Shown here piece by piece: positions 8,700-50,061 of a stretch of 64,000 nt of DNA. The number at the start of each line of letters is the position of its first letter. Position 1 is the stretch's first letter. Source of the stretch: a virus. The translations under genes and the position numbers were made by a program. The stretch spans positions 45,058 to 109,057 of IMG/VR virus record IMGVR_UViG_3300028025_003409; one strand, 5' to 3'. The notes under the pieces were generated by a model, which saw only the letters and a list, made by a program, of their open reading frames with translations, was not told where the DNA came from and did not search any database.

Positions 8700-9464
8700 T
8701 TAGTCGACAATAGTTTCTCTAGAACCAGGTTTATTGGCTTCAAAACCAAATATAAGGTTTGCTCTAGGCCCTATAGCAGACACTTCATGCCATAGTTCTT
8801 TAGGTATAAAGATTACATCTCCTGGCTCTAGGATAAACTCTGTAGGTTCTGAATCATACGCTTCTGATGTACGCCATCTTGTTTTGCCCAAACACTGAAG
8901 GTTAAGCACATCAGCGTTATCTCTATGCCTTGTTGAAGACTTGTCCCAATCGGTTACAGAAAATACAGAATTAATGTCTGTTAGTTCGCCATCATAGATT
9001 TCTGTCAATTCTCTAATATAGAAGTCTTTGTTTCTATAGTGATCGGATGTCTTAGGCGATACTAAATTGAATTCCCCCCAAAATTGTAAAATACCTATAA
9101 CCTTCTTGCCAGCCTTCTCAAATGCTTCATTTCTAAACATTGGATCATCATCATGTGCACAGGAGTTTACGTTATTTAAGAATTCTTCCCAATATGGAAG
9201 CATGTCTTTTGGGATAGCCCCTCTTAGAACTGTTCCAGTGTTTGTTAGTACTGCGTTTAGGATCTGATTATGATATAAGTCTTTTTTGTTGCAATCCTTA
9301 CATACCGTTTCTGAAAAAATTTTTACAGACAGGTTTTCTGGATCAGGCCTACCTAGGTCTTCCCAAAATTGTTCTCTACCCATGGAGTCAGTGTTAGGCA
9401 TTGCTTTTGATTCGAACTGGAATTCACTGTCCCAGGCATTTTCTAGATTGTCCAAAATTCCCAT
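8700..9464 (-). CDS. JmjC/cupin-like oxygenase
   Basis: HRD...QCLGKTRW...LEPGDVIFIPKELWHEV. Confidence 0.75.
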   Translation of the reverse strand: MGILDNLENAWDSEFQFESKAMPNTDSMGREQFWEDLGRPDPENLSVKIFSETVCKDCNKKDLYHNQILNAVLTNTGTVLRGAIPKDMLPYWEEFLNNVNSCAHDDDPMFRNEAFEKAGKKVIGILQFWGEFNLVSPKTSDHYRNKDFYIRELTEIYDGELTDINSVFSVTDWDKSSTRHRDNADVLNLQCLGKTRWRTSEAYDSEPTEFILEPGDVIFIPKELWHEVSAIGPRANLIFGFEANKPGSRETIVD

Positions 9465-9611: not shown

Positions 9612-9902
9612 CTACCCCGACTTACTTAGTATGGGTACCACCTTGCGATCCAAAAAGTTTTTCATCTTTTCGGTATCTTTCTTTTGCTTGATGTCTATGT
9701 TAGTAATACCTAAATCTCTAACTACCTTGCTAGTTTCTACTACAATAGTTTTAGCGAATGCAACACCTAAAAGTTTTAGACCTAAAGGAATTGCAACCAC
9801 CGCACCGATTGTTAGCACTAGCATCATGATAGCCATAAAAATAAGTGAGTACTGTACTACATTAGCAAACCACTCGAATGGTGCAGAAATAAAATCAAAC
9901 AT
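9612..9902 (-). CDS. membrane protein, hypothetical
   Basis: AGGAG RBS, long hydrophobic stretch. Confidence 0.6.
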   Translation of the reverse strand: MFDFISAPFEWFANVVQYSLIFMAIMMLVLTIGAVVAIPLGLKLLGVAFAKTIVVETSKVVRDLGITNIDIKQKKDTEKMKNFLDRKVVPILSKSG

Positions 9903-9911
9903 TTATTCTCC

Positions 9912-10121
9912 TTAGTCTGATGTAGTGAGTGTTGATGTGGGGGTGAGTGAGTCTAGGTAATCTTGGCGTACCTTAGACATAACTCTATCTATCTGTGCAT
10001 AAGCATTAGCACACTTATAGCAATAGGTTTCTGTGTTGATGCCTAGCATAAAGGCATCTGTTCCACTATAGACTAACTCTGTTGAGTCGCAGTTAATTAC
10101 CTTGCATGTATTTGTGTTCAT
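9912..10121 (-). CDS. small Cys-containing hypothetical protein
   Basis: CxxxxC...CxxC; purine-rich RBS. Confidence 0.55.
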   Translation of the reverse strand: MNTNTCKVINCDSTELVYSGTDAFMLGINTETYCYKCANAYAQIDRVMSKVRQDYLDSLTPTSTLTTSD

Positions 10122-10272
10122 TTATTTATCTCTTTTCTGTAGTGCATGAGCAGGGGTTGATTGTTATTTGTTTTCCTTTTTGTGTAACTACCGCTAGGGT
10201 GTTACATGATGAGCATAGGTATAGGTGCATTAGAATTCACTTTCCTTATCTAGCATGGTGGGGACTAGTACA

Positions 10273-10294
10273 ATTATAGTGCATAGCACTGACA
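10273..10294 (-). promoter_or_regulatory. PafBC/RecA-NDp-type promoter
   Basis: reverse strand TGTCAG-tgctatgcac-TATAAT. Confidence 0.7.
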
Positions 10295-10321
10295 AAACTA
10301 GGATGATAATAGGTAGGCTCA

Positions 10322-10498
10322 TTAGATACACTCCTCACATGGGCATTGTGGGAATTCTGCATCTTGCTTAATGCGATTAGCAAGGGCAATAACCTTTTTA
10401 TAGGTATCGGCAGACGCACCCCTAAAGGATACTACCTTACCCTCGGCTACTAATTGAGCAGCCTTATTTATTTTTTGTTCTAGTGTTAATGTAGTCAT
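10322..10498 (-). CDS. small hypothetical protein (58 aa, below ORF track cutoff)
   Basis: AGAAAGGTGG RBS; MTTLTLEQKINKAAQLVAEG...QCPCEECI. Confidence 0.6.
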   Translation of the reverse strand: MTTLTLEQKINKAAQLVAEGKVVSFRGASADTYKKVIALANRIKQDAEFPQCPCEECI

Positions 10499-10552
10499 TT
10501 GATGACCACCTTTCTTTTTAATGCGATATCTATTTGATACCTTTTTCCTTGA

Positions 10553-10626
10553 CCTAGGTTATTTGCTCTTATTTGCTACGCTCACCCGATAATCGGTTTA
10601 TTTGGTAGGCTCAGAGGCTCACTAGG
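10553..10626 (-). ncRNA. double-GAGCCUAGCAAAUAA structured RNA, copy A
   Basis: outer stem CCUAG/CUAGG, inner CCGA/UCGG hairpin, downstream of a TTGATA-17-TAGACT promoter. Confidence 0.55.
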
Positions 10627-10736
10627 ATTTTTCTTTATTTAATTTTTCTTACTATGTAAGTCTAGCAAAAAATCTAATAAATATCAACTTACTAGCCAGT
10701 ATTCTCATATAATGAGACGCTTGGGCTATGTGATTT

Positions 10737-10798
10737 AGGTCACTTATTTGCTAGGCTCATATAACTTTTTGTTATCTTATTTGCTAGGCTCATAACCT
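10737..10798 (-). ncRNA. double-GAGCCUAGCAAAUAA structured RNA, copy B
   Basis: outer stem AGGUUA/UGACCU, inner AUAAC/GUUAU hairpin, two exact motif copies, downstream of TTGACT..TATTAT. Confidence 0.6.
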
Positions 10799-10819
10799 TT
10801 TATCTCTATTTAATTTTTC

Positions 10820-11065
10820 TTATACTAGTATAATAACACATCTACCCCTAAAAGTCAAGTCCTAGCACGGCGTGTCGTGTGTGATATGCGTCACATGGGG
10901 ACGTGCATGATCTACCCCCTATACAGGTACCCCCTATCTAGGACGTGCCCTGTGGATAACCTGTGTATAACTATAGTGGTATACATCACATGTGTGCTAC
11001 ATCACAATGTCCAATTTATACCTTTTATACCCTCGTAAATGTCAGACCCCCCTGTTATACTTACT
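10820..11065. promoter_or_regulatory. divergent control hub of the early region
   Basis: leftward TTGACT promoter, CGGCGTGTCG, TGTGA-N6-TCACA (10880), GGACGTG x2, TACCCCCTAT x2, DnaA boxes (10951, 10962), rightward TGTCAG-N10-TATACT (11040). Confidence 0.75.
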
Positions 11066-11113
11066 AGTATAAAGAAAGTCAGAAAAGGTTTCTGAACTAG
11101 AAAGGACAATAAA

Positions 11114-11287
11114 ATGTCAAACAGTATTTTCGGTCAAGGTTTCGCTAAGGTTAGCGATTACCCTAAAGGTCTAATGAACCTCTGCCCTTGTGGGCAGGTA
11201 GTCTTAGCACCTGCTAAGTATCACGCAGGTCAGCCTTGGTGGGATAACCCCAACAAGTGTAAAGAATTATTCGAAGGAGTAAAATAA
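11114..11287 (+). CDS. small hypothetical early protein
   Basis: AGAAAGGA RBS; MSNSIFGQGF...CPCGQ... Confidence 0.6.
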   Translation: MSNSIFGQGFAKVSDYPKGLMNLCPCGQVVLAPAKYHAGQPWWDNPNKCKELFEGVK

Positions 11288-11416
11288 ATGAACTTAGATG
11301 AATACAAGCAAATGATAGAGGCTCAACGCCTCACCTCTTTAGCAATAGCGTTAGACGCTCTACGCAAATCCAATGCCATAATGGAAAACACTTTCAATTT
11401 AGAGGAGAATGAATAA

Positions 11417-11683
11417 ATGAAAACACTTCAAGAAAAATTAGACCTTGCTGCAAAAGCAGTTGAGCCAGTTTTAGCAGAATTGCTAAATGAGGTTGATGAA
11501 AAAACCGACTATGAATTAGAACAAGAATTGCAAGAGCAATTTGATGAATACATAAATGATTCGCATGACCCAGTAATGATTGCAGGAATTTTATTTTATC
11601 CTGCTGACATTCTAAAAGAATGCGACCCAATCGCTTATCGTGTTTTTCTAAATGATTTTGAATCGTATTTAGAAAACGAATAA
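11417..11683 (+). CDS. acidic hypothetical early protein
   Basis: GAGGAG RBS; ILKECDPIAYR motif. Confidence 0.6.
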   Translation: MKTLQEKLDLAAKAVEPVLAELLNEVDEKTDYELEQELQEQFDEYINDSHDPVMIAGILFYPADILKECDPIAYRVFLNDFESYLENE

Positions 11684-11760
11684 ATAAAAACCAAGATCGC
11701 AGAAATAAAACTCTGCGATTTTTTGGGACGTCCCGTGTGATGCGAATCACATTCAAAATA

Positions 11761-11801
11761 CGGCGTGTCGTCTTGACTTTTTGAGATTTCTCTGCTATAC
11801 T
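11761..11801 (+). promoter_or_regulatory. SigA-type promoter with upstream GTGTC (GACAC) element
   Basis: CGGCGTGTCG-tc-TTGACT-17-TATACT with extended TG. Confidence 0.8.
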
Positions 11802-12048
11802 TCTAGTATAAAGAAAATTGAGAAAGGTTCTCAAATTGAAAGGAGTCCAAATGGACTATAACGAATACTATGATGAAATTTATCTAGAAATCTATGAGGA
11901 GTTTGGCGCTGAAAGCGTATCAGACCCAGCCTACGCTGAATCTCTAAAAAAGTGATGTAAATCACACAACGCCTACGGCGTGTCGCCTTGACTTTTCAGG
12001 GTATGTGTGATAGTCTTACTACATAAGAAAAACTAAATAAAGGACAAA

Positions 12049-12116
12049 TTGGCTAATGAGCCTAAGCAAATAAATGTGATACAAATCACAGTGAGCCTTA
12101 GCGAATAAGTAGCCGA
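12049..12116 (+). ncRNA. double-GAGCCUAGCAAAUAA structured RNA, copy C
   Basis: outer stem UUGGCUA/UAGCCGA, inner UGUGAU/AUCACA hairpin, downstream of TTGACT-17-TAGTCT. Confidence 0.55.
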
Positions 12117-12173
12117 AATGTCAGCCCCCAATGGTAAGATAGTCTTATCAAACAAACGAAAGGAAGTCTAAAA

Positions 12174-12371
12174 ATGACTTACACTATAACACTAGAAACC
12201 TTTTCAGGTTCTACAAAAAAAATCAACCTTGCCTCTAAGGGTGCGGTTGCTCAATTCATCTCAACTTATCCAACTCAACTACCTGTTGGCGTTGCTGTAA
12301 AAATCGCTTGCGATACCCTCGGAATTAGTGGCACACTTCGTGGCACTTCTACACTTACAAAATCAAACTAA
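12174..12371 (+). CDS. hypothetical early protein
   Basis: GAAAGGAAG RBS; follows TGTCAG-N10-TAAGAT promoter at 12119. Confidence 0.65.
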   Translation: MTYTITLETFSGSTKKINLASKGAVAQFISTYPTQLPVGVAVKIACDTLGISGTLRGTSTLTKSN

Positions 12372-12390
12372 AGAATAGGAAATAAAATAA

Positions 12391-12597
12391 ATGACTAAAG
12401 TAGAACACTCTCTAAAGTTCGTAACCGAGTTCGATGAAACTCACCCAGTAGCACTACAAGCACTATCTATCCCTCACTCAGATTTGGTTGCTATGCTTGA
12501 AGGAATGCTAAAAGATTTGCTAGTGCCTGCCCTCGGTCCTGTACTTGATGAAATAAATGCTCGTGGCACTTATGCAATTCTAAAGGTGGCCGAGTAA
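12391..12597 (+). CDS. hypothetical early protein
   Basis: AGGA RBS, operonic. Confidence 0.6.
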   Translation: MTKVEHSLKFVTEFDETHPVALQALSIPHSDLVAMLEGMLKDLLVPALGPVLDEINARGTYAILKVAE

Positions 12598-12782
12598 TGA
12601 TGACACGCAAGGACTATGTTGCAACTGCTGAAATTCTTTCATCATTCAAAGATTTGATAGGTGATGAATTTACTTTTCACGACTTAGTTGATGAATTTGG
12701 TTCAATGTTTGAAGCAGATAATCCAAGATTTGATTCAACTAAATTTTTTGAAGCGTGTAACAAAGACACTTACTAAATAAAA

Positions 12783-12810
12783 AAATCCTGAGCAAGATTT
12801 AAAACTGCTC
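12783..12810 (+). ncRNA. small H-type pseudoknot element, copy 1
   Basis: AAAUC/GAUUU and GAGCA/UGCUC interleaved stems. Confidence 0.6.
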
Positions 12811-13302
12811 CACACTCAAAATTTTGGGACGTCGCGTTCGGGCGTGTCGTCCACATGACGCAGATCACATTCAGAATTGAGCGTGAGTTATCCACATGAC
12901 CTACATCACATTTCAAAATGTCCGATTTGTGGCATTACTGGTCAGTAGATGTCAGACCCCCCTGCTATACTTACTAGTATAAAGAAAGTCAATCAAGGTG
13001 ATTGAACTAGAAAGGAATTCAAATGAATTCAACAATTATCAAGTGTGTAGAACACACACCCTTCAAGTCTGCTATCTCAGAGGTTGCAGATACACAATTT
13101 ACTTTTTGTGAAATTTGTGAAAATAACATTGAGCGTTGGTATAACGATACCGACCCTGAGCGTCTACCAATGTGGACAGATTGGAAGGTATCTAAATGAT
13201 AGACTTCGTAAAACAATTAGAATTAGAAAACTATCTTGCAGACGAGCAAGTAGACCCACTAGCAAAAATGCTAGATGAACTAATAAAGAAAGGAGAATAC
13301 AA

Positions 13303-13539
13303 ATGAGTCTATCCCTTGCTAATAAAATCGCAAAAGATAAATTCTTTCTGCCCCCTTCAAAATACATAAACCACAAAGTCGTGGAGATTGTATCTTTAAA
13401 TGAGGATAGCGGTATCGCTACTGTAATCCTAGAAAAATACACAATAGGCAGAAATGCTAATGTGTATAAAAATAATAATGTGTTCACAATTGAATTGCCT
13501 TATTCCGAATTTCAAAATCTAAATGGTTGGAGTGAATAA
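13303..13539 (+). CDS. hypothetical early protein
   Basis: AAAGGAG RBS. Confidence 0.6.
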   Translation: MSLSLANKIAKDKFFLPPSKYINHKVVEIVSLNEDSGIATVILEKYTIGRNANVYKNNNVFTIELPYSEFQNLNGWSE

Positions 13540-14182
13540 ATGAGTACCTATGTACCAATTAAATCTGTATGTGGTGCAGTAACTACCACAATTGACATCT
13601 ATGACATTGAGTTAAATCCTCACGGAGTAATCTGTTGCGATAACTGCAAGTCAATCATTCTATGCCGTAAGGCTTGGGATTTTCTATACAAGGAGAATAA
13701 GTAATGCCACTATTTGAATTTACAACATTTATAAATGTTGAAGCAGAAGACTATGACTCTGCTATTGCTATGTTTGACTCTAATTTAGAGTATGGTGGAA
13801 TTCGCAGAAGCGATGTTTATGTCGCAGAAATTGAGGAAAAGTAAAATGAGTTTTTATCAAACCTTTTTTGAAAGTGGCAACGCATTGTTTTGGTTTTCAA
13901 TGATCTGCTTAGCAAGTGGATTTTATTTATTTGTAAAAGAGTAGAAAAACGGGACGTCGCGTTCGGGCGTGTCGCCACGCTGTGAGATTTATCACATGGC
14001 TTGAGCGTCTCAGTATTTGGACTTACTGGCTAGTAACTTGATAATTTGTGAGTAATAGGCTAGACTTACATAGTAAGTAAAAATAAATAAAAGAAAGTCT
14101 ATCCCACTACGGCGTGTCTAACCGAAAATGTCAGACCCCTATGGTAGGATAGAATTATCAACAAAAAGAAAGAGGTTGGCAA

Positions 14183-14389
14183 ATGTCAGCAAATGTCTAT
14201 ACAATAGAACACCTACTTGTAGGAACACAATACCGCTCACGAACACTATCGGGAGAAATTATCTCAGCAGAGAAACACCCTAACGCAGTTTGGTATCAGG
14301 GTTGCGAAAGTTATCTAGTGGAAGTGCGCCCTAGTAATTTTGGAAAAGTCGTATGTCGCACAGTAGCAGTAAAGGTAGAAAATAACTAA
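14183..14389 (+). CDS. hypothetical early protein
   Basis: AGAGG RBS after TGTCAG-N10-TAGGAT promoter at 14129. Confidence 0.65.
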   Translation: MSANVYTIEHLLVGTQYRSRTLSGEIISAEKHPNAVWYQGCESYLVEVRPSNFGKVVCRTVAVKVENN

Positions 14390-14662
14390 TGGGATACATA
14401 GAGATTTTTAGAATTGACAATGAGGGTGCAGGTTGGATAGACTTGGACAATGCAACACCTAGCGAATTGCTAGACCTAGAAATTGGCTTATTTCAGGAAG
14501 GGGCTATCTAATGGGAGTAATGAAAGAATTGCACTTAGAGATAACTACTTGCGACCTATGCTATGGCACAGGTTGGCTATACTTTGGCAATAGCGAGGAC
14601 TTTGATACAGAGTCTTGCGATTGTAACCCACACCAACTATTTATAACTAAGGAGAATAACTA

Positions 14663-14881
14663 ATGAACGAATACCTATACTCAGTAACAACAACTAATGA
14701 CGGAGAGGCTAAGCCGAATTGGATTGGTCGCTACTCAGACGCACTAAGTGCCGTTGAAGTTTATCAGAGATTTATTGACCACGGATTTGCTAACGAATTC
14801 CGTACAGTAAATTTATCAGAGCCTAGTGGCAAAATGCATACAAAAATTTTGTATCGCAGTGGAATTGTGGGAGGTAAGTAA
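14663..14881 (+). CDS. hypothetical early protein
   Basis: AAGGAG RBS. Confidence 0.6.
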   Translation: MNEYLYSVTTTNDGEAKPNWIGRYSDALSAVEVYQRFIDHGFANEFRTVNLSEPSGKMHTKILYRSGIVGGK

Positions 14882-15042
14882 ATGGACATAACTACTTTTG
14901 CAAAAGGAATGAGCAAGATTGCTCCGAATTATGGCATAGGGTATGATAACTATGGTCAGGTTATTATTTATACTAACCTAAAAGAAACTGAAAATAATCA
15001 GTATGCAGAAATGTCAGATAACGATTTTGAGGAGAATAAATA

Positions 15043-15330
15043 ATGGGATCAGTTACAGCAATTGGATTAGCGGATAGCGTATTGGATTTAGAAACTCAAT
15101 TGGCGTATCACTTACAGGGTAATCACTATCCACCCGTACCACTTTCTATGGTTCAGCCTTGCATAGAAGCAATTGACGCATACTATGATGAGGACTATGA
15201 CCGATTTATTGCTATGCCTGAAGGCGTATTCTATAAGGGAATGAGCCACGCACCTGCCCACGCAATTGTAGACCAACACCACTTGTCTTGGTTTATTGAC
15301 CCAGTAGACGAATTTGAAGATGAGGAATAA
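15043..15330 (+). CDS. hypothetical early protein
   Basis: GAGGAG RBS; HLQGNHYPPVP motif. Confidence 0.65.
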   Translation: MGSVTAIGLADSVLDLETQLAYHLQGNHYPPVPLSMVQPCIEAIDAYYDEDYDRFIAMPEGVFYKGMSHAPAHAIVDQHHLSWFIDPVDEFEDEE

Positions 15331-15331
15331 A

Positions 15332-15574
15332 ATGAATGCTACAATGAGCGACATGGAACTAATCGAGGCAGATACACTTGCACCAGACCAACTAATGATT
15401 GGTGATTTAATAAAAGTAAACAATGACATTCTTGAAGTTATTTTTATTGAAAGTGATTCTACTGGAGATAACTACGATGTACAAGTAAAAAATGAATTTG
15501 ATGAATTAGAAATAATTCAATTTGCTTATACTGATTCTATTCCATTGTATGTTTTTATTGACTACGATGAATAA
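15332..15574 (+). CDS. small acidic beta-barrel-like hypothetical protein
   Basis: PDQLMIGDLI motif; GAGG RBS. Confidence 0.55.
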   Translation: MNATMSDMELIEADTLAPDQLMIGDLIKVNNDILEVIFIESDSTGDNYDVQVKNEFDELEIIQFAYTDSIPLYVFIDYDE

Positions 15575-15799
15575 GTAAAACTATTTTTATGCACTTCCCC
15601 GCATAAAAATGGGACGTCCCGCAGTCGGGCGTGTCTGTGTATATCCTGTGGATAACTATGTGCTACTCATGAGTAACCCTTTAAATATTTCTTTAAGATA
15701 GTTTATTTTATTTTCCCCGATTCTGGGCAAAATTTTTTGTGATTTTTATCACACGATCAGGATTTGACATTTTTATGATATGTGTGTTAGTATTGTTAT

Positions 15800-15946
15800 A
15801 TGAAAAAAACAAATGAGGAACTCCGCAGGCTTATGGAACTACGCCGTAGCAACGCTGCCTCTGCCGTGCCTTCTAAAAGGGCTTACAATCGAAAGAAATG
15901 TCAGTCCGAACTGTTACAATATAAATATCAACAAAAAGGAGAATAG
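15800..15946 (+). CDS. small basic leaderless protein
   Basis: ATG 6 nt after TTGACA..TAGTAT; MKKTNEELRRLMELRRSNAASAVPSKRAYNRKK. Confidence 0.55.
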   Translation: MKKTNEELRRLMELRRSNAASAVPSKRAYNRKKCQSELLQYKYQQKGE

Positions 15947-16109
15947 CCCATGACCTACGAAAACGATGAAATGCTAGATGAATACTATGCAACTGTATGC
16001 CCCTCATGCAAAGAAAATGCGGTAGACGCATATGAAGATAAATGCACTCATTGCTTACTAGAAGAAATGTCTGTCCACTATAACGAAGACATTGCTCTAG
16101 AAATGAGTC

Positions 16110-16850
16110 TTGGCCTTGACTACTGATACACTTAAACTTAAACGCTCTAATGATAGAAAGGTGGCTAATCTTGTCACAAAAAATGGAAAGCAAGCCGCAA
16201 TCGCAAATACCTTTGGACTACCTGCTGGAAAGGCTTTCTCGTGCCCTGGTGCCACTAGCGTATGTGAAAGCGTGTGCTATGCAGGAAAACTCGAAAAACT
16301 CTTCAAAGGCGTAAAGGCTAACCTCTTACACAATTGGACCTTACTTAAGGACGCCGATCAATTAACTATGGAGACACTGTTAACTGAAATGATTAACGAT
16401 TTCCGTGCAGACTGTGTAAAGAAAGACGCCCCTATGCTATTCCGTATCCATTGGGACGGAGATTTCTTTAATGATATATACACTCATGCATGGAAGAATG
16501 TAATCAATAACAATCCTGATATTCAATTCTGGGTATATACCCGTGTTAAGTCTGCTGCACTTATACTTAAGGATGTATCTAATCTATCATTGTACTTCTC
16601 TGCAGATAGTGAGAATGTAAAAACCGCCGTTGACTTAAAAATTAATAGTGGCGTACGTATGGCATACCTTGCTAAGAACTTTGCTATTGGTCAAGCCGAT
16701 GTAAAAGAAATGATAGGCAGACCTGCTGCTAAGTGTCCTGAGAATAATAAACAAATTCCACTTATCTCAACTAACGGTAGCGCTTGCGTTTCATGCTCAC
16801 TTTGTGTATACTCTAAGAGTGATATCATATTCTCTGCGAGTAAAAAATAA
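16110..16850 (+). CDS. GP88-like / radical-SAM-like Fe-S protein
   Basis: SCPGATSVCESVCYA, FRIHWDGDF, C-terminal CP...CxxCxxC. Confidence 0.7.
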   Translation: MALTTDTLKLKRSNDRKVANLVTKNGKQAAIANTFGLPAGKAFSCPGATSVCESVCYAGKLEKLFKGVKANLLHNWTLLKDADQLTMETLLTEMINDFRADCVKKDAPMLFRIHWDGDFFNDIYTHAWKNVINNNPDIQFWVYTRVKSAALILKDVSNLSLYFSADSENVKTAVDLKINSGVRMAYLAKNFAIGQADVKEMIGRPAAKCPENNKQIPLISTNGSACVSCSLCVYSKSDIIFSASKK

Positions 16851-17096
16851 ATGAGCACTGCATTCTATTTTTGGATAATGCTAATACTACTAATAAGTTT
16901 ATTAGGTGGTGGTGGTTGGTGATGATCCCCTGAAAAATGGGGACGTCGCAAAATCTTTGATTTGTCAAATTACGACACGCATAAAAAATGTGGGGTTTAT
17001 CACACTAGAAAATGTCATTTGGATTAGGATTTATGACATTTTTATGCTAAAATTATACTATAAGCAAAACCCCCACAACAGAAAGGCAAGACCCAA

Positions 17097-17267
17097 ATGA
17101 CACTAGGCGGATACACTTACCAAATTGGTGATTTATTCACAACCAGCAAAACAGGCATTACGGGACGCATTAGCGATTTCACCCCTGTCAATGCTAAACT
17201 AACTAGAGTTTCATTACGCTTGGCAAACGGCGCACACCGATTTGCTATGGTAAAGACCTCTAAGTAA
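17097..17267 (+). CDS. small SH3-like protein, paralog 1
   Basis: TYQIGDLFTTSKTGITGRI; own promoter and AGAAAGG RBS. Confidence 0.6.
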   Translation: MTLGGYTYQIGDLFTTSKTGITGRISDFTPVNAKLTRVSLRLANGAHRFAMVKTSK

Positions 17268-17374
17268 TCTCAAAATGTGAGAAAATGTCGAAATGGATTT
17301 GACATTTCTACAAGCAAAATGTTATACTTAGGTATAACCAAATAACAACCCCTAACAGAAAAGAGAAAAAACAA

Positions 17375-17539
17375 ATGGCAGTAAATACAGCAACATACAA
17401 GGTCGGCGATACTTTCACGACACAGAAGTCAAAGGTTAGCGGAGTAATCACAGAGATTACACCACAGGCTAACGGAAATGTCCGAGTAAAGTTAGATGTA
17501 GATGGCAAGCCACGCTACACAACTTGGACGGCTAAGTAA
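17375..17539 (+). CDS. small SH3-like protein, paralog 2
   Basis: TYKVGDTFTTQKSKVSGVI; TTGACA-18-TATACT promoter. Confidence 0.6.
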   Translation: MAVNTATYKVGDTFTTQKSKVSGVITEITPQANGNVRVKLDVDGKPRYTTWTAK

Positions 17540-17590
17540 TCTAATTACTAAGTGTCGGGCGTACAGGCACTATAAATAAGGGGCGAGAAC

Positions 17591-17618
17591 GAACCTGAGC
17601 AAGTTCCAAAAAGGCTCA
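17591..17618 (+). ncRNA. small H-type pseudoknot element, copy 2
   Basis: GAAC/GUUC and UGAGC/GCUCA. Confidence 0.5.
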
Positions 17619-17652
17619 ACACCCCCACTAACAGAAAAGGAAACAAAAACAA

Positions 17653-18075
17653 ATGGCAAGAGGCAAAGCAATCTCAGTAAAAATCCCTACTCAACGAGTA
17701 ATCACCGCACTAGAGTCTGCACTAGCAAAACTAGAGTCAGACTACGCATCACAAGAACAAAAGGAAGCACAGTACCAACTTCTATACAAGGCTTGGCAGA
17801 AAGAGTTAGCAGATTTCGCTATTGCTAATTTCTCAAAGGCTGAGAACATTAGAACAAACTTCCGTTCTTGGAACAAGACCCTCAACATTGACTTCGACAT
17901 TATTGGTAGCGAAAGCAATTTCCCTGCTGAACCTGAGAAGCAACACGAAACTATCCATCAGCACACTTATCGTGAGCAAAAAGAGGAAATGCAAAATGCA
18001 ATTCGTATCCTCAAAATGACAGATGAGGAAGTTGTAAATACTTCCACATACAATGCGGTTGCTCGCTATCTCTAA
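17653..18075 (+). CDS. hypothetical protein
   Basis: AAAGGA RBS, 140 aa. Confidence 0.7.
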   Translation: MARGKAISVKIPTQRVITALESALAKLESDYASQEQKEAQYQLLYKAWQKELADFAIANFSKAENIRTNFRSWNKTLNIDFDIIGSESNFPAEPEKQHETIHQHTYREQKEEMQNAIRILKMTDEEVVNTSTYNAVARYL

Positions 18076-18082
18076 GTGAGAT

Positions 18083-18264
18083 TGGGTGGGGTGTAAAAGC
18101 CCCACTCATTATCCCCTGAGTTCCACGCTATTTATAGCAAGTGTCCCCTGGGGATCCTTCGCCAGGCTGATTAGGGCGATAACAGAAATACTATAGAGCC
18201 AGTTCACACCAACTGCAAGAAGTGTAACTACCTGAGTAAGTATCAAAACTGCTCCCCGCAAGGG
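18083..18264 (+). ncRNA. run of structured RNA elements ending in pseudoknot copy 3
   Basis: successive stems UGGGUGGGGU/GCCCCACUCA, AUCCCC/GGGGAU, UCGCC/GGCGA, then UAC/GUA + GAGUA/UGCUC. Confidence 0.5.
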
Positions 18265-18329
18265 TCCTTGACAAATGTCAGTGGTCTCGTGTACAATTAA
18301 ATTAAACAAACTAACAGAAAGAGGCCCCC

Positions 18330-18749
18330 ATGGACCAAACAACAAACACAGTAGTGAATGCCACAGAAGACTTTCTTCGTGACTCACTAGCCAAAGCAAC
18401 ATTGCGTGTTACAGAATTAGAGGAGCACATCTCTAAGGTTACGCAGCGCTCATATGCAGAGTCTGCAGATAAGAATCGTATCGTTGAAGCAATGCAAGAG
18501 TGGACCCTTGGGGCCCTTGAGCACGGCACCATTGATGAATCAGATGCAGAAGAAATTGCAGACATCTGTGGATTTGAACTAACGAAAGAATTCGAAGTTG
18601 AAGTCACAGTCATGTATTCGGTTACCGTAAATGCTCGCACTGAAGAGGATGCACAGAATGCAATTCATGATATTGATTTTGATACTGTAGACTACAATTC
18701 AGATTCAATTTCATATCTATCATCCTCAATTGATAGAGTTGACATTTAG
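18330..18749 (+). CDS. acidic hypothetical protein
   Basis: AGAGG RBS after dual TTGACA/TGTCAG promoter at 18268-18297. Confidence 0.7.
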   Translation: MDQTTNTVVNATEDFLRDSLAKATLRVTELEEHISKVTQRSYAESADKNRIVEAMQEWTLGALEHGTIDESDAEEIADICGFELTKEFEVEVTVMYSVTVNARTEEDAQNAIHDIDFDTVDYNSDSISYLSSSIDRVDI

Positions 18750-18767
18750 TAGGGGGCTACTAACAAA

Positions 18768-18799
18768 AGACCTGAGCATGTCTGTACGTAAACTGCTCA
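18768..18799 (+). ncRNA. small H-type pseudoknot element, copy 4
   Basis: AGAC/GUCU and UGAGCA/UGCUCA. Confidence 0.6.
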
Positions 18800-18985
18800 T
18801 TTTTAAAATCCCTCAAAATTTGGGACGTCCCGCCGACCAGTCATTGTCAAATCGACACGCCGTTTACGAAGGGTGATCTTTGCCACAATGTTCGATTTAT
18901 CCACATCTAACTATCCCGATTTGCATATGTCAGTCAGTCCTGCTATACTTAGAATTCAACAACAAAAAGAAAGAAGGAAAAACCT

Positions 18986-20008
18986 ATGGCACATGACCTA
19001 GAAACTCAAAACGGAAAAACATCTTTTGCGTCTTTCCGTGAACCTGCTTGGCATGGATTGGGTACCGTATTCACAGAAGAGAAAACAACCGCAGAAATGC
19101 TAGAGGCTGCAAACCTCAATGGTTGGAATGTTCGTCTTGAGGATTTGGAAACCCCTACACATCTAACAAGCGACAAGGCGTACCAATATGTCTTGCGTAC
19201 AAATCCTACCGACAACACACAAACCGATATTCTTGGTGTAGTTGGTGAGCGATACCATGTTTTGCAGAATGAAGATTTATTCTCATTCGGTGATAACATT
19301 CTTGACGGCGGAGGTCGTTGGGAGACTGCTGGCTCAATCAAGGGTGGTCGTGTCGTGTTCGGTGCATTAGCACTAGAGCGTGAAACAATTCTTGACCCTA
19401 ATGGTGTTGCAGACAAGGTAAAAACTTATTTGCTCATCAACACATCACATGATGGCTCAATCGCTATTCAAGCAAGCATTACACCCGTTCGTGTCGTGTG
19501 CGCTAACACTCTCAATCTTGCGCTTGGTGGCGTAGGTCGTAAGAAGAATAAGGGTATCAAGCAATCTTTCAAGATTCGCCATACACAAACTGCAAATGGT
19601 AAAGTGCAAGTTGCTCGTGAGACTCTTGGTCTTGCTAATGCATACATGAACGAATTCGATATCATGGCTAAGGCAATGATTGAGAAAGAAGTTTCTGCTA
19701 AGCAATTCAACGACATCATTCTTGCTGCTTACGCTAAGCCTGAAAAGGATTCTAAGGGTTCACTAAAGAAGTGGGAAAATAAAGTTGATGTTATCAACGA
19801 TATTTACACTGGTGAATTCAATGGAATGATTGCGGGTAATGCGTGGGGTGCTTTCAATGCACTAACCGAACGCCTTGACTGGTATCGTTCTGCTCGTGGT
19901 GGTTCTAACGAATCTATCCTTGCAAGCGCAAGCGGATTTGACCCTGCTATCAACGCAGAAAAAAATCGCTTACTAAAAGTTGTGCAGAATGTAATGTCTC
20001 TCGCATAA
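18986..20008 (+). CDS. DUF932/DUF945 phage-plasmid family protein
   Basis: PAWHGLG, LGVVGERYHVLQN, WETAGSIKGG, SHDGS, RVVCANTL, IRHT. Confidence 0.85.
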   Translation: MAHDLETQNGKTSFASFREPAWHGLGTVFTEEKTTAEMLEAANLNGWNVRLEDLETPTHLTSDKAYQYVLRTNPTDNTQTDILGVVGERYHVLQNEDLFSFGDNILDGGGRWETAGSIKGGRVVFGALALERETILDPNGVADKVKTYLLINTSHDGSIAIQASITPVRVVCANTLNLALGGVGRKKNKGIKQSFKIRHTQTANGKVQVARETLGLANAYMNEFDIMAKAMIEKEVSAKQFNDIILAAYAKPEKDSKGSLKKWENKVDVINDIYTGEFNGMIAGNAWGAFNALTERLDWYRSARGGSNESILASASGFDPAINAEKNRLLKVVQNVMSLA

Positions 20009-20015
20009 TAAAAAA

Positions 20016-20043
20016 ATTCCTGAGCAAGAATAAAAACTGCTCA
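20016..20043 (+). ncRNA. small H-type pseudoknot element, copy 5
   Basis: AUUC/GAAU and UGAGCA/UGCUCA. Confidence 0.6.
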
Positions 20044-20049
20044 CCATTT

Positions 20050-20123
20050 GGTCCGTTAGAATAGTTGGTTAGTTCGCCACCCTGTCACGGTGGAGGTCAT
20101 GGGTTCAAGTCCCATACGGATCG
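20050..20123 (+). tRNA. tRNA-Asp (GTC)
   Basis: cloverleaf GGTCCGT/ACGGATC, anticodon arm CCACC-CTGTCAC-GGTGG, TTCAAGT T-loop. Confidence 0.92.
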
Positions 20124-20314
20124 CAAGTAAATAAATATGCAACGCAATGTATAAAAATTTGGGACGTCCCCTGTGACTTACATCACATGAGATTTTTAAC
20201 TAAATAACTTTACGATAGGGTGATATTTTCCCCAAAAATTCTTTACGATAGATTTGACTTTTTCCCCAAACCATGCGATAATTAATATATAACCCACTAA
20301 AAAAGGAAAACCCC

Positions 20315-20740
20315 ATGAGAGACAGATCAAAAGGATATATCGGTCAAATCGTTGACGGTAAAAAGTTAGCCACAATTGCAAATAATATCTATCGCCTACA
20401 GTATAGTAATGACTTTAGTGAGTGTACTGTAGATAATCTACTGTTCATTACCCTCGAAGAAACCAATGTCTTTGGAGACAACAAGTACGCCTTGGTTTGT
20501 TCAGAAGGAGTGGGCTGGGAGCAAGATACTTATGGATGTCTAGAAGTACCAACTAACATTGGCCAAATGGGTCTATGGAATGGAAGAGTATTTATATCAG
20601 TAGATACCGTTAAGGAATGTCTAACAGATCAAACAGAAGACATTGCAGACTATGTCCGTGTCTTTGGAGACAGACTAGATAGGAACTGTTCCCTGTGGCA
20701 GTCCAAGATGTCAGTGCCTAGTGCTATGATAAATGCATGA
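20315..20740 (+). CDS. hypothetical protein
   Basis: AAAGGA RBS. Confidence 0.65.
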   Translation: MRDRSKGYIGQIVDGKKLATIANNIYRLQYSNDFSECTVDNLLFITLEETNVFGDNKYALVCSEGVGWEQDTYGCLEVPTNIGQMGLWNGRVFISVDTVKECLTDQTEDIADYVRVFGDRLDRNCSLWQSKMSVPSAMINA

Positions 20741-21040
20741 ACACAATAAATGACCTTATAAACGAAATCTATGACGACAACTTCTCTCACCTTGAGTTTG
20801 AGGAGAATATGGGCGGTATCGATTGTGACTGCCATATCCACACTACACTAAACACTATTGCTAAGTATGCAGGGATTGAGGTAGGATAATGTTAGGCTAT
20901 ACTGAAACTGATATTGCAGTAATGACAGATGCTATGGAAGACGCTATCAAATCAGGTAGGCTCTCTGATGAGATAACAGATGGTTTGGAGAAGGCTATGT
21001 CTTTCTTTGATGGCCTATGGGCAGAAGGGTATTTTGACTA

Positions 21041-21247
21041 ATGAAAGTTAGAATCAGTCTTGAACAAACCATTGATATAGATGATGCTATGTCTAATGAT
21101 ATAGGGTTTGAACTCTATGGTCCCCCTGACATGAGCACTGAAGATAAAGTAGATTATCTAATGGCTCGCTTTGCTGAGGACATAGACACTATGGTAAAGT
21201 ATGATGAAGTATTGGGTAACATCTCAGTAGAATACATAGAGGACTAA
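21041..21247 (+). CDS. acidic hypothetical protein
   Basis: operonic ORF. Confidence 0.55.
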   Translation: MKVRISLEQTIDIDDAMSNDIGFELYGPPDMSTEDKVDYLMARFAEDIDTMVKYDEVLGNISVEYIED

Positions 21248-21248
21248 T

Positions 21249-21479
21249 ATGTGGAGTAGGTATACCTTTGTTTGTGATCCTGATGAGTGTGATGCCCTGG
21301 TTGAGTTTACTGCTAGGGATGACTTTGGATTTCCCCTGGGAGTTGTCGAAATGAGATGCCCTTGTGGTAGGATGTTAAACTATATTAGTTATGAAGAAGC
21401 CTATCAACCGATCATTACAGATGTGAGCAAGGTCACACCCCGTACAGTTGTCAAAATCGACTCGAACCCGTATAATTAA
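21249..21479 (+). CDS. small Cys-motif protein
   Basis: CDPDEC...CPCG; GAGG RBS. Confidence 0.6.
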   Translation: MWSRYTFVCDPDECDALVEFTARDDFGFPLGVVEMRCPCGRMLNYISYEEAYQPIITDVSKVTPRTVVKIDSNPYN

Positions 21480-21482
21480 TAT

Positions 21483-21683
21483 ATGAATACAATTATAGAA
21501 TATATGAAGTTACACCTGCTCAGTCTTGAACAAGACTCTGCTCACCTTGAAAAGCAAATGGATGCTTATTCTAACTATGAGGATGATGACTACCGTATGC
21601 TAGAGATTGAAGATATCTCTACTAATGGTCAGATTATCGCTACCGCCCACCTTTTGTCAGTGGCTCAGGGTATGATAGAGTAA
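21483..21683 (+). CDS. hypothetical leaderless protein
   Basis: TTGTCA-17-TATAAT directly upstream of ATG. Confidence 0.6.
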   Translation: MNTIIEYMKLHLLSLEQDSAHLEKQMDAYSNYEDDDYRMLEIEDISTNGQIIATAHLLSVAQGMIE

Positions 21684-21961
21684 TGGAAACAACACAACTA
21701 GAGCCAAGACTGCAAAGACTCATTGACCTAGGAGAGTCAGGCACTGACATACTCCATGGTGAACTCAAGAACTTAATGCTTGAGGCCGAAAAGGAATTCC
21801 TTGAGGCACAACAGATTGAAGAAGACAACGACTACTCAGACGCTATGGAGTCTATGGAGCGTAAGTACTGGGAAGGCCAGTGCGACGCATTAGCCCATGT
21901 CTATGCATTAACTTATCAACTAGCATTTGCTCTCAGTGACAGGATAAAGAACAATGGATAA
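21683..21961 (+). CDS. hypothetical protein
   Basis: TGTCAG-N10-TATGAT (21655) directly upstream of ATG. Confidence 0.6.
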   Translation: METTQLEPRLQRLIDLGESGTDILHGELKNLMLEAEKEFLEAQQIEEDNDYSDAMESMERKYWEGQCDALAHVYALTYQLAFALSDRIKNNG

Positions 21962-22487
21962 GTTTATCGAAATGGACTTTGACGAGTGGTGTGAGACCTA
22001 CAAGCCAATCGTTAATCATATAGATACAAATGCCTCATTTGACAATGGCGAGGGTGGCATTATGTTTGAGACCTACGGCGACGAGGTTGAGTTTGTAAAG
22101 CAGCAAGACGCTAATAAGATATGGATGTATGGGGACGGAGACGACGGTGGAAGTTATATCTGGTCTGGTTGGGGCTTTGTTAATAGGCTTGGTTATTTTA
22201 TCACTGATAAACCTTGCCCAGATAATGTGACCATTCAGGTACGAGTTAGTTACAATTGGTTCTACTGTGAAAACTGTGGGGCTGAGTTTGAAGACCCTGA
22301 TAATACTATCAGAGATAAGTTTGATGAGGCCGATTTGGAAAAATGCCCAAATTGTGCTACACTTGAAGAAATGACCCAAATAGAAAAAGGAGACCCAATG
22401 AAAGAAAATGAGCAAGTAGACGAAGTACTAGTAGACCCTGAACTGCTAAAAGATGTTTGGTTTGATTTAGGCAAGGACGGTAAGTAA
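21954..22487 (+). CDS. hypothetical protein with C-terminal zinc ribbon
   Basis: FETYG...GFVNRLGY; CENC...CPNC. Confidence 0.65.
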   Translation: MDKFIEMDFDEWCETYKPIVNHIDTNASFDNGEGGIMFETYGDEVEFVKQQDANKIWMYGDGDDGGSYIWSGWGFVNRLGYFITDKPCPDNVTIQVRVSYNWFYCENCGAEFEDPDNTIRDKFDEADLEKCPNCATLEEMTQIEKGDPMKENEQVDEVLVDPELLKDVWFDLGKDGK

Positions 22488-22632
22488 TGTCAACATACAA
22501 AGTAGAAGTAATCTTTGAGCCAACAGGCGACTACATGAATTTTAGATACGAGGCGGAATCAGACAATGAAGAGGACCTCTGCAGAGAAGTATTAAACCAA
22601 CTATCAATTGTATCTTGGAAGGATGAAGAGTA

Positions 22633-22992
22633 ATGGGAGCACGGATTAACTACGTATTCAAAGACAGTGAGCAGGGCCCTATGGTTGCTCTATACAGCCA
22701 TTGGGGTGAGACTGAGTGGCAGCGGGACCTAGCAATGGCGCTGCAGCATGCAAAACCCCGCTGGCAAGATTCTGCATATGGTACACGGATGATCATTAGT
22801 TATCTTATGCAAGACAGCATTCTAGAGGAGACAGGCTTTGGTATTTACGCTATTAGCAATGACGGGTCCCTTGACCTAGGTGACCTTACAGTACTAGTCG
22901 ACTTCACTACCAATACTGTTACTGATAGAGTTTCGGTACCGTTTGATAAATTCATGGATGCATATCTACCAGTTTTAGTTGAGCAGGCATAG
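22633..22992 (+). CDS. hypothetical protein
   Basis: MGAR...LYSHWG motif. Confidence 0.65.
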   Translation: MGARINYVFKDSEQGPMVALYSHWGETEWQRDLAMALQHAKPRWQDSAYGTRMIISYLMQDSILEETGFGIYAISNDGSLDLGDLTVLVDFTTNTVTDRVSVPFDKFMDAYLPVLVEQA

Positions 22993-23619: not shown

Positions 23620-23699
23620 CAAGATTATCCTTGATCCCTGGGCTTGACAAAAGCCTGGGGTTATGGGACGTCTCAGGACGTCAAATCGGACATATCGGA

Positions 23700-25062: not shown

Positions 25063-25284
25063 TACTCTATTATACTTGACATACCGTGCAAAATTGGATA
25101 TACTTGAAGTATGACTAATCAAGAGATATCTGACCTATTAAATAAAGAATCTTACAAGGTTTGGGACACTGCTAAAGTAATTAAGAACCAAGACTACCAT
25201 GATGGACTGGTTAAGGGTTTGAAGATGGCTGCTCAGTTTGTTTCTAAACTTGACTAAACCCTCAACTTAAGGTATACTGGATAT

Positions 25285-26603: not shown

Positions 26604-26827
26604 GGTTGTTTAAGTATCTCTATTTTGCGCCGAACTTTAAAAACTTGACATCCATCCGCCGAACCTGTATAATTGGTATATGAGTATAGACGAAATGATT
26701 TTGCGAGAAGAAATTGCAAGGGCTATTGAGGCTTTGCCCATTGAACCATCAAAAACAAATGCTTTGGGCATGCGTATTGCTGCTGCTCAAATAGCAAGGG
26801 GAGACGATAACTATATGACTAAAATGT

Positions 26828-28402: not shown

Positions 28403-28476
28403 GCACCAGTAGCCAAGTTGGTTAAGGCCCCGAACTCATAATTCGGTTATCATAGGTTCAAGTCCTATCTGGTGTA
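28403..28476 (+). tRNA. tRNA-Met/Ile2 (CAT)
   Basis: GCACCAG/CTGGTGT acceptor, CCGAA-CTCATAA-TTCGG. Confidence 0.9.
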
Positions 28477-28480
28477 CTAA

Positions 28481-28553
28481 TGGGGATTAACTCAGTTGGT
28501 AGAGTGGCGAACTGTTAATTCGCAAGTCGCAGGATCGAGGCCTGCATCCCCAG
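28481..28553 (+). tRNA. tRNA-Asn (GTT)
   Basis: TGGGGAT/ATCCCCA acceptor, GCGAA-CTGTTAA-TTCGC; atypical T-loop ATCGAGG. Confidence 0.85.
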
Positions 28554-28557
28554 CAAT

Positions 28558-28630
28558 GTCTCCATGGTCTAGTGGCCTAGGACTCCACCCTTTCACGGTG
28601 GCAACACGGGTTCGAATCCCGTTGGAGATA
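28558..28630 (+). tRNA. tRNA-Glu (TTC)
   Basis: GTCTCCA/TGGAGAT acceptor, CCACC-CTTTCAC-GGTGG, TTCGAAT. Confidence 0.92.
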
Positions 28631-28634
28631 CTAA

Positions 28635-30140: not shown

Positions 30141-30413
30141 TCATGACTGACCATTAAGCCTATTGTGAGTTCTAATCCTATGACAGTTAGCACACACTAC
30201 TTCACATTTTTCGATCTCTTTCTTTATAGACTTCCAAGAAAAACCATCATGAATCATTCTTGACACATTATATTTCTTATCTCTTATATGGTCAAAATCT
30301 AAGATAATATGATTATTGATTCCACAATCTACACAGCCAGAATCTTCTTTTATCTTAGCAAGTTTTCTTTTATACTCTTGCTTATTATAGATATCTAACT
30401 CTTTGTCAGTCAT
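30141..30413 (-). CDS. HNH endonuclease
   Basis: CVDCG...LDFDH...CEVVCANCHRIRT; probable leaderless start 30413. Confidence 0.85.
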   Translation of the reverse strand: MTDKELDIYNKQEYKRKLAKIKEDSGCVDCGINNHIILDFDHIRDKKYNVSRMIHDGFSWKSIKKEIEKCEVVCANCHRIRTHNRLNGQS

Positions 30414-30441
30414 TGCTTCTATTATACCCTGCAATATTAGG

Positions 30442-49521: not shown

Positions 49522-49536
49522 ATTTAAAGTATACTC

Positions 49537-50061
49537 CTAAAGACTGACAATGTCAACTGGGCCCATACAGGATGGGTTAAATTTAATTGCAGCGTTTACT
49601 GCTTGTGCTACTCTGTTCCTTGCATTTTTTTGTTTGTCTGTTGCGTACAGAACTCCATAAGCGTACTCTGCTCCTGAGCCCATTGCAAGATATGGAAGTG
49701 TGTACTTAGATAAAGACATGTCAGCAGAACTATGCTCATAGATTTCTCCACGAACCGCAATGATCAAACCAAGATCTCCATCTTTAGATGTGTCAACCCA
49801 GAACTCATTATAAAATTCTTTAAGTTCTTTAATAAACTTAGTTTGCATAAACTTGTCTGTGTCTTTAATATTAGGTGCTGTTGGCTTAAAGTTATAACGG
49901 ATTCTTTCTCCGTCCATTGCCCCCGCATACCCAATAAGATATGGACCTATCTTCCAAACCTTTGGTGCATCAAGTGCTAAAATAGTTCCATCATCTGAAG
50001 CCCCACGGTCTCCAGCCATGTAGATCTTATCTTCATGTTTTACTACGGCAATACAAGTCAT
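49537..50061 (-). CDS. HslV/proteasome-beta-like Ntn peptidase
   Basis: M-T-C-I-A start (catalytic Thr), AGD, K, AMGSGAEYA. Confidence 0.8.
   Translation of the reverse strand: MTCIAVVKHEDKIYMAGDRGASDDGTILALDAPKVWKIGPYLIGYAGAMDGERIRYNFKPTAPNIKDTDKFMQTKFIKELKEFYNEFWVDTSKDGDLGLIIAVRGEIYEHSSADMSLSKYTLPYLAMGSGAEYAYGVLYATDKQKNARNRVAQAVNAAIKFNPSCMGPVDIVSL

Follow-up and report, generated by a model that had tools for sequence, protein, structure and literature searches.

Which factor directs transcription from ten copies of TGTCAG-N10-TAnnnT that lie between positions 10273 and 21676 of a 64,000-nucleotide stretch of viral DNA? The stretch (the window) comprises bases 45,058-109,057 of the 109,057-bp IMG/VR record IMGVR_UViG_3300028025_003409, which carries direct terminal repeats and is rated complete. 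A preliminary description of this DNA listed the ten sites, matched them to the promoter class that the host activator PafBC recognizes through a -26 element (the RecA-NDp class), and proposed that the phage connects its early genes to the host sensor of single-stranded DNA (ssDNA) and of DNA damage, which would switch on takeover genes. The ten-site observation is confirmed, and the interpretation is partly supported. Judged by their sequence, the ten sites appear to be promoters of one regulatory class, that of PafBC, and the probability that a PafBC-type sigma adaptation of the host reads them is estimated at about two in three (0.68).

Each of the ten sites was recovered, position and strand included. 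The window contains 14 exact matches to TGTCAG-N10-TAnnnT, against 0.89 +/- 0.99 expected from shuffled windows; in 100 shuffles the count never exceeded 5. Outside the window the 109,057-bp genome has no further match, and 12 of the 14 lie within 10273-21676. The bare hexamer is not enriched (34 copies vs 34.3 expected), and the signal consequently resides in the hexamer, the spacing and the -10 box together. The spacing is as exact as had been claimed: with TGTCRG as the hexamer, a 10-nucleotide spacer gives 15 matches, and every other spacer between 5 and 19 gives 0-4. In an unbiased scan of all hexamers placed 4-22 nucleotides before TAnnnT (45,373 combinations, with 20 shuffled genomes as control), TGTCAG at N10 ranked first, with 14 occurrences vs 1.23 expected (Poisson 6.5e-11; best shuffle value 1.9e-6). 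The runners-up are shifted versions of the same pattern, and the fourth is CTTGAC at 18 nucleotides, which belongs to the ordinary -35 class. By our estimate, the odds of an arbitrary hexamer and spacing landing on TGTCAG or TGTCGG at N10 are approximately 1 in 10^4.

The enrichment extends from the genome to its relatives, as a motif scan of both demonstrates. Relatives of the DUF932 gene of this phage occur on at least 430 IMG/VR contigs, of which 80 were fetched, all from metagenome assemblies. The 80 related loci span 1.38 Mb and contain the pattern 604 times in the forward and 39 times in the reverse orientation, vs 3 and 6 for the reversed control pattern. Orthologous sites were then located by the similarity of their flanks, without imposing the pattern, which yielded 136 distinct variants at nine sites. 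The first four bases of the hexamer are practically fixed (T 100%, G 100%, T 99%, C 100%), position 5 is looser, with A in 88%, G in 7% and T in 5%, and G occupies position 6 in 97%. The spacer sequence varies freely, and its net length is kept in 131 of the 136 variants, in several cases through paired insertions and deletions. This pattern of substitution indicates purifying selection on the hexamer and on the spacing. Chance, or a by-product of base composition or coding, accounts well for three of the 14 matches, which look random and fit the approximately 0.9 expected per window: 11588..11609 on the minus strand, antisense within gene 11417-11683; 14184..14205 on the plus strand, which sits on the start codon of gene 14183-14389 and is not conserved, the relatives carrying TGGCTACT... 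instead; and 30404..30425 on the plus strand, opposite the minus-strand open reading frame (ORF) 30141-30488, with no gene start downstream. For the ten listed sites, the enrichment, the first rank in the scan and the selection on hexamer and spacing refute this explanation, whose probability is negligible.

Regarding the depth of this conservation, a distant relative represented by an 85-kb contig (DnaE 73% and TerL 80% identical) carries AATGTCNGTGG-N7-TATAAT at 19 sites that share one orientation, and 27 occurrences of AATGTC at 12 nucleotides were counted there vs 2.3 expected. When IMG/VR was scanned for AATGTCNGTGG-N7-TATAAT, at least 120 stretches matched, the densest having 16 sites in 14 kb; they belong to genomes of 105-116 kb whose terminase is 55-58% identical to that of this phage. 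The idea that independent phage lineages carry the motif was rejected, since the terminase, wherever present in these stretches, is 55-80% identical. The genes behind the promoters turn over, with protein similarity to the phage ORFs covering only 3-40% of the loci of this flavour. Collectively, the sequences indicate that the promoter type is old and conserved within one deep clade of lake phages.

The sites follow the local direction of transcription, as the preliminary description had it: genes between 11 and 28 kb lie on the plus strand, and only the site ending at 10294 points leftward. This minus-strand promoter, TGTCAGTGCTATGCACTATAAT (10273..10294), is predicted to drive an operon of a 34-residue ORF (10126-10230), a 69-residue cysteine-rich ORF (9912-10121) and a 96-residue membrane protein (9612-9902), perhaps together with the JmjC protein at 8700-9464. 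The plus-strand series opens with TGTCAGACCCCCCTGTTATACT (11040..11061), which has the ACCC flavour discussed below and an extended -10 element (TGn), precedes the ATG at 11114 of a small-gene operon (11114-11683), and has 37 orthologous sites in which TGTC is invariant. It continues with TGTCAGCCCCCAATGGTAAGAT (12119..12140; ATG 12174, genes 12174-12776), for which 39 orthologous sites in 23 variants include compensating indels that preserve N10, and with TGTCAGACCCCCCTGCTATACT (12950..12971; ATG 13023, genes 13023-13944). The next promoter, TGTCAGACCCCTATGGTAGGAT (14129..14150; ATG 14183), precedes the operon 14183-15574. Three small proteins of this operon (68, 72 and 95 residues) are the most widespread in the clade, and genes 14183-14389, 14663-14881 and 15043-15330 are clade-conserved. 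It is followed by TGTCAGTCCGAACTGTTACAAT (15899..15920; ATG 15950), in front of a 58-residue gene and the GP88-family gene 16110-16850. The TGG flavour is represented by TGTCAGTGGTCTCGTGTACAAT (18276..18297), upstream of a 139-residue gene with its ATG at 18330; 48 orthologous sites in 25 variants were located here. Downstream, TGTCAGTCAGTCCTGCTATACT (18928..18949) precedes the ATG at 18986 of the DUF932 protein (340 residues) and then tRNA-Asp.

A ribosome-binding site and ATG are generally found 29-52 nucleotides past the -10 box, in agreement with the proximity to gene starts noted previously. The last two promoters, TGTCAGTGCCTAGTGCTATGAT (20709..20730, plus strand) and TGTCAGTGGCTCAGGGTATGAT (21655..21676, plus strand), have their ATG only 6 nucleotides past the box, at 20737 and 21683, and would give rise to leaderless transcripts of genes 20737-21683 and of genes 21683-22992 and beyond, respectively. 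The leaderless arrangement is common in actinobacteria. Both lie within the 3' end of the preceding ORF (20315-20740 and 21483-21683), as had been reported for three sites; the third, at 15899, is embedded only if the 48-residue ORF 15800-15946 is real. A possible eleventh site, TGTCAGTCTTTAGGAGTATACT (49528..49549, minus strand), is located outside the small-gene block, again with a leaderless ATG 6 nucleotides past the -10 box, and is overlapped by a canonical TTGACA-N17-TATACT promoter (49556-49528).

The anatomy of the sites was examined in a logo of 473 distinct sites. An extended -10 element (TGn) is present in approximately three-quarters of them, and no -35 box is conserved, that is, no hexamer 17 nucleotides before the -10 box. 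The exceptions are the sites at 18276 and 49549, which combine TTGACA with the -26 element; at 18276 it lies 18 nucleotides before the -10 box, so that this promoter may be dual, belonging to both classes. TGTCAG was also considered as the inverted -35 (CTGACA) of a promoter on the opposite strand, and this was rejected because no -10-like conservation is found upstream of the hexamer. Taking into account that TGTCAG occupies positions -28 to -23, too near for region 4 of sigma, an adaptor between sigma and the DNA would be needed.

These properties are those of PafBC-dependent promoters. PafB and PafC are a pair of proteins with an HTH-WYL-WCX architecture. The in vivo consensus of PafBC is tGTCgg(N10)tA(N3)T without a -35 box; the helix-turn-helix of PafB contacts positions -28 to -23, and its base-specific readout at two G:C pairs concerns the GTC triplet, which is nearly invariant across actinobacteria (PMC8635444). 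The motif class reaches beyond mycobacteria into other Actinobacteria (PMC8223512), and PafBC is constitutively present and activated by ssDNA (PMC11804915; PMC10693628). In the phage, all ten sites read TGTCAG, in agreement with tGTCrg; the GTC triplet is invariant and position 5 loose among the relatives; only N10 to a SigA-type TAnnnT is enriched; and the 473-site logo lacks a -35 box, apart from the two exceptions named. The conservation pattern is consequently what the readout by PafB would predict, and the class match drawn in the preliminary description holds in hexamer, spacing, missing -35 box and GTC invariance. The phage was also searched for a reader of its own, as had been suggested: no WYL domain and no Sigma70_r2 domain was detected, and tblastn of the proteins of the PafA-PafB-PafC locus of genome G001 and of the WYL protein of G178 against the phage gave a best E of 0.19.

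A further agreement, which lay beyond the view of the preliminary description, comes from actinobacterial genomes. Among 301 sampled Actinomycetota genomes (11 of them unpublished, on which no specific claim rests), 257 contain WYL genes, typically as an adjacent pair, which in G001 adjoins pafA. Rhodopsin was used as a marker of aquatic life and is encoded by 29 of the sampled genomes; all 11 small rhodopsin-bearing genomes (1.7-2.4 Mb) have at least two WYL matches. A promoter of the form TGTCAC-ACCCCC-N4-TAGGTT precedes recA in five of ten small rhodopsin-bearing genomes, which are candidate host lineages. In seven rhodopsin-bearing genomes, ACCC continues 14 of 51 TGTCAS-N10-TAnnnT matches, vs approximately 0.3 expected from base composition. 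The clearest case is the rhodopsin-bearing G108, in which sbcD, recA, rmuC and dnaB (contig C1, positions 39309, 951288, 1500809 and 2363600; loci L262, L264, L266 and L257) share the promoter TGTCACACCC-N6-TAnnnT, that is, TGTCAC-ACCC-N6-TAnnnT, with dciA and a DUF222 gene behind other flavours. The start codons of sbcD, rmuC, dciA and the DUF222 gene lie 7-9 nucleotides past the -10 box (8-9 for sbcD and rmuC), which is near leaderless. Thus the motif stands before DNA-repair genes of aquatic-type genomes, and the ACCC-type regulon of G108 appears to be a flavour of the PafBC type that we have not seen described. In the phage clade, the commonest tetramers after the hexamer are likewise ACCC (12-14%, background 0.23%) and TGG[CTG] (23-47%, background approximately 1%). 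Since ACCC was absent from the search pattern, the extension provides independent agreement with the aquatic actinobacterial DNA-repair regulon.

The mycobacterial setting of the preliminary description did not stand, as the phage is an abundant uncultured freshwater actinophage of approximately 37% G+C and not a mycobacteriophage. The assignment to actinophages is based on its WhiB protein, its GP88-family and DUF932 proteins and the likeness of its DnaE-type polymerase to those of Streptomyces phages. WhiB scores above the Pfam cut-off, and its matches in the cultured-phage collection are exclusively actinophages, infecting Streptomyces (127), Mycobacterium (94), Microbacterium (13) and Rhodococcus (9). 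The polymerase shares 52-55% amino acid identity with Streptomyces phages of the Stanwilliamsviridae, and WhiB approximately 40% with the same nearest cultured relatives, so the two are distantly related; the search of the cultured-phage collection returned no close relative. A related contig was assigned to a metagenome bin whose name follows the pattern of the Lake Mendota series.

Efforts to find the host among genome contigs were less productive. A WhiB search returned only phage contigs mis-binned into metagenome-assembled genomes; these contaminated bins (L094-L098; contigs G001:C64, G001:C102 and G002:C1) are labelled Acidimicrobiaceae, Polynucleobacter, Saccharibacteria, Bifidobacterium and Arenimonas. 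When 401 actinobacterial genomes were searched with the DNA of the small-gene block, only tRNAs and further mis-binned contigs matched. The large order of G046 was considered as an acI-type host group and was not adopted, as its members are mostly without WYL genes and rhodopsin is found in none of 31 genomes; the orders of G008, G067, G023 and G031 are each represented by five or six genomes.

Several observations weigh against reading by host PafBC. The searches above yielded no host genome in which to look for pafBC. The aquatic host-type sites read TGTCAC and the phage sites TGTCAG, and in the distant 85-kb relative position 5 is frequently T (TGTCTG), outside the published R. Another set of ten small actinobacterial genomes, half of which have WYL matches, shows TGTC-N12-TAnnnT before recA in only two cases, and most of the ten have a LexA-type recA promoter only. 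Counting the motif genome-wide where WYL genes are present gave chance-level numbers or weak enrichment (13 vs 2 in G023), counts of this kind being too insensitive and noisy to reveal a regulon. Furthermore, 13 cultured actinophages with PafBC-bearing hosts lack the array (three of them Streptomyces relatives, nine mycobacteriophages and one a Rhodococcus phage). The array is not a general actinophage trait, and its confinement to one lineage (TerL 55-80%) would also fit a factor confined to that lineage.

Such a factor could be an adaptor encoded by the phage itself, resembling MotA/AsiA of T4 or mimicking PafB, that is made early from a canonical promoter and links TGTCAG to the host sigma. 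A promoter class of this kind has its precedent in T4 (PMC8635444). Besides the restricted distribution of the array, canonical TTGACA-N17/18-TAnnnT promoters coexist with it in the block, and several small proteins without annotated function are conserved clade-wide, with no counterpart in cultured phages, which again counts against reading by host PafBC. The best-placed candidate is a 140-residue protein (17653-18075, plus strand), whose gene follows the canonical promoter at 17299. This protein, too, is conserved clade-wide and lacks a homologue among cultured phages, and its rapid divergence (31-87% identity among relatives) is a frequent trait of proteins that interact with the host. Its predicted structure (predicted local distance difference test score 84.5) consists of one long helix and a small sheet, with neither a helix-turn-helix nor a fold match in the PDB, and thus neither supports nor excludes the role of adaptor; protein-atlas look-ups returned viral hypothetical clusters only. 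No DNA-binding family was matched by 21 phage proteins from this region in Pfam or by ten in PHROGs, the MotA and AsiA families not being searched by name, and, as noted, homologues of WYL, PafB/C-like and sigma proteins were not detected. The adaptor would moreover require a coincidence with, or close mimicry of, the hexamer, the spacing, the GTC invariance and the ACCC and TGG extensions of host repair promoters. On balance, a phage-encoded adaptor is considered unlikely, although it is the main alternative.

Another host factor could also read the hexamer, either a second WYL-type activator acting at -26 or a repressor with an operator that overlaps promoters of the extended -10 type, which can do without a -35 box. 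SiwR demonstrates that further actinobacterial WYL activators work at this position (PMC10693628), many actinobacterial genomes have more than two WYL genes, and the TGn element in approximately 75% of the sites could confer some activity independent of an activator. However, the SiwR element is a GGA triplet in a 19-bp palindrome, not GTC, and TGTCAG is non-palindromic; a repressor operator would not need a base-exact distance to the -10 box maintained by compensating indels; and the same extended motif stands before recA, sbcD, rmuC and dnaB in host-type genomes, as expected of a PafBC-type regulon. This possibility is very unlikely. The adaptor is therefore most likely host PafBC, or its orthologue in a freshwater actinobacterial host.

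If host PafBC is the reader, infection would generate the ssDNA that activates it, whether from entering or processed phage DNA ends, from phage replication and recombination, or from the breakdown of host DNA. Active PafBC would then insert between domain 4 of SigA and the DNA and read the GTC of the -26 element (sigma adaptation), so that the housekeeping holoenzyme fires the ten cassettes, with approximately 45 small genes, while canonical -35/-10 promoters would run without PafBC. In this scheme we infer the presence of PafBC in the host, its binding to the sites, the source of ssDNA and the timing; the terms "early" and "takeover" are drawn only from gene size and position. As the block also contains canonical promoters, it may equally be that the -26 class is delayed-early or coupled to replication instead of coming first.

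The genome indeed contains two promoter classes, the canonical -35/-10 class being distributed genome-wide, with TTGACA-N17/18-TAnnnT members also inside the small-gene block, and the -26 class being restricted to that block. Canonical leaderless promoters of the form TTGACA/T-N17-TATAMT are found at 25076-25104, 25250-25278 and 26645-26673 on the plus strand and at 49556-49528 on the minus strand, each with an ATG exactly 6 nucleotides past the -10 box; by sequence they constitute a second class, predicted to be independent of an activator. The five tRNA genes comprise Asp (20050-20124) and a tight cluster of Met, Asn, Glu and Arg (28403-28708) that ends the plus-strand block.

The intergenic regions of the block are modular, with a hairpin and T-run followed by GGGACGTC(CC), a CRP-type palindrome TGTGA-N6-TCACA, GGCGTGTC and then the promoter. 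The GGGACGTC(CC) element (11725, 12826, 13951, 15611, 16940, 18822, 20161 and 23665) follows the hairpin and T-run at the start of most cassettes and divides the block into modules. Seven perfect CRP/GlxR-type palindromes are present vs 0.13 expected (10880-10895, 11736-11751, 12075-12090, 13981-13996, 15738-15753, 20172-20187 and 21422-21437), all within the small-gene block and three of them centred approximately 64 nucleotides upstream of a predicted transcript start; their number suggests that the phage embeds consensus sites of conserved host regulators. The nine copies of GGCGTGTC, vs 0.24 expected, lie mostly just upstream of promoters (10869, 11762, 11977, 12841, 13966, 14111 and 15628 on the plus strand; 18854 and 35575 on the minus strand) and include GTGTC, which we take to be the complement of the WhiA-type GACAC. 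Four exact copies of ATGTYCRATTT (11007-11017, 12918-12928 and 18888-18898 on the plus strand; 23683-23693 on the minus strand), vs approximately 0.1 expected by our estimate, include three placed 32-40 nucleotides upstream of -26 promoters, and the copy at 18888 is kept in relatives. The palindrome TATACTnnnAGTATA, formed from the -10 box and the transcript start, occurs at promoters of both classes (11056-11071, 12966-12981, 11796-11811, and 10835-10821 on the minus strand) and could be an operator or a 5' stem. Finally, repeats with GAGCCTAGCAAATAA (10553-10626 and 10737-10798 on the minus strand; 12049-12116 on the plus strand) lie downstream of the canonical TTGACT promoters 10858, 10687 and 11988 and may be small RNAs.

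PafBC and sigma adaptation are known so far only as a DNA-damage response of the host, and no published description of PafBC-type promoters in phages was found in the literature on PafBC or RecA-NDp and phages, mycobacteriophages included, in line with the preliminary description, which knew of none for a lytic phage. If reading by host PafBC is correct, this would be the first case of a phage switching on its own transcription through a WYL-type ssDNA sensor, across a clade of abundant lake phages, and its gene timing would be tied to ssDNA, the signal by which many WYL-regulated defence systems recognize phages. One passage of PMC12848934 cites Rafique 2025 as showing that PafBC regulates mycobacteriophage resistance. 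A more elaborate and distinctly doubtful proposal is that the array is both sensor and sink. The phage would time its approximately 45 small genes by the host ssDNA alarm, and the hundreds of high-affinity -26 sites of its multiplying genomes, together with phage ssDNA, would divert PafBC from host repair and defence genes; the CRP-type sites would likewise divert CRP, and the array would thereby blunt the response it exploits. The use of PafBC can be tested without culturing phage or host, as the promoters are short and actinobacteria at large share the motif; for M. smegmatis, pafBC deletion strains and an in vitro system are already available.

Among known systems, the middle promoters of T4 are defined by a MotA box, (a/t)(a/t)(a/t)TGCTTtA, centred at -30 and 11-13 nucleotides from the -10 box, and are used through sigma appropriation by MotA and AsiA. 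They resemble the lake-phage sites in that the -35 box is replaced by an element nearer to the -10 box and, in the scheme proposed for the lake phage, in that the housekeeping holoenzyme acts with an adaptor and a temporal gene class results. The phage element, TGTCAG at a fixed 10 nucleotides, is nevertheless not a MotA box; in T4 the adaptors are phage-encoded and remodel region 4 of sigma, whereas none was detected in the lake phage, whose element equals the site of a host activator. Under PafBC reading, the contrast would thus be with a phage that supplies its own adaptors. The Stanwilliamsviridae phages BillNye, Jay2Jay and Blueeyedbeauty, the nearest cultured relatives, are also large lytic actinophages with a G+C content far below that of their hosts, but carry 0, 2 and 0 copies of TGTCRG-N10-TAnnnT, which is the chance level. 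The SiwR promoter of M. smegmatis shares a WYL-type activator at -26 of a SigA promoter and the response to genotoxic stress, and differs in its GGA triplet within a 19-bp imperfect palindrome and its single operon, compared with TGTCAG in the phage (PMC10693628). The repair promoters found here in aquatic actinobacteria, of the PafBC type, continue with ACCC or TGG as in the phage, with C instead of G at position 6. Compared with PafBC promoters proper, also called recA P1-type, the phage has ten in 11.4 kb, in front of small uncharacterised genes and not of repair genes, in a host whose PafBC we infer; in all other respects considered, the two coincide, with tGTCrg at -28 to -23, 10 nucleotides to TAnnnT, no -35 box, and an invariant GTC in a non-palindromic element (PMC8635444, PMC11804915, PMC8223512).

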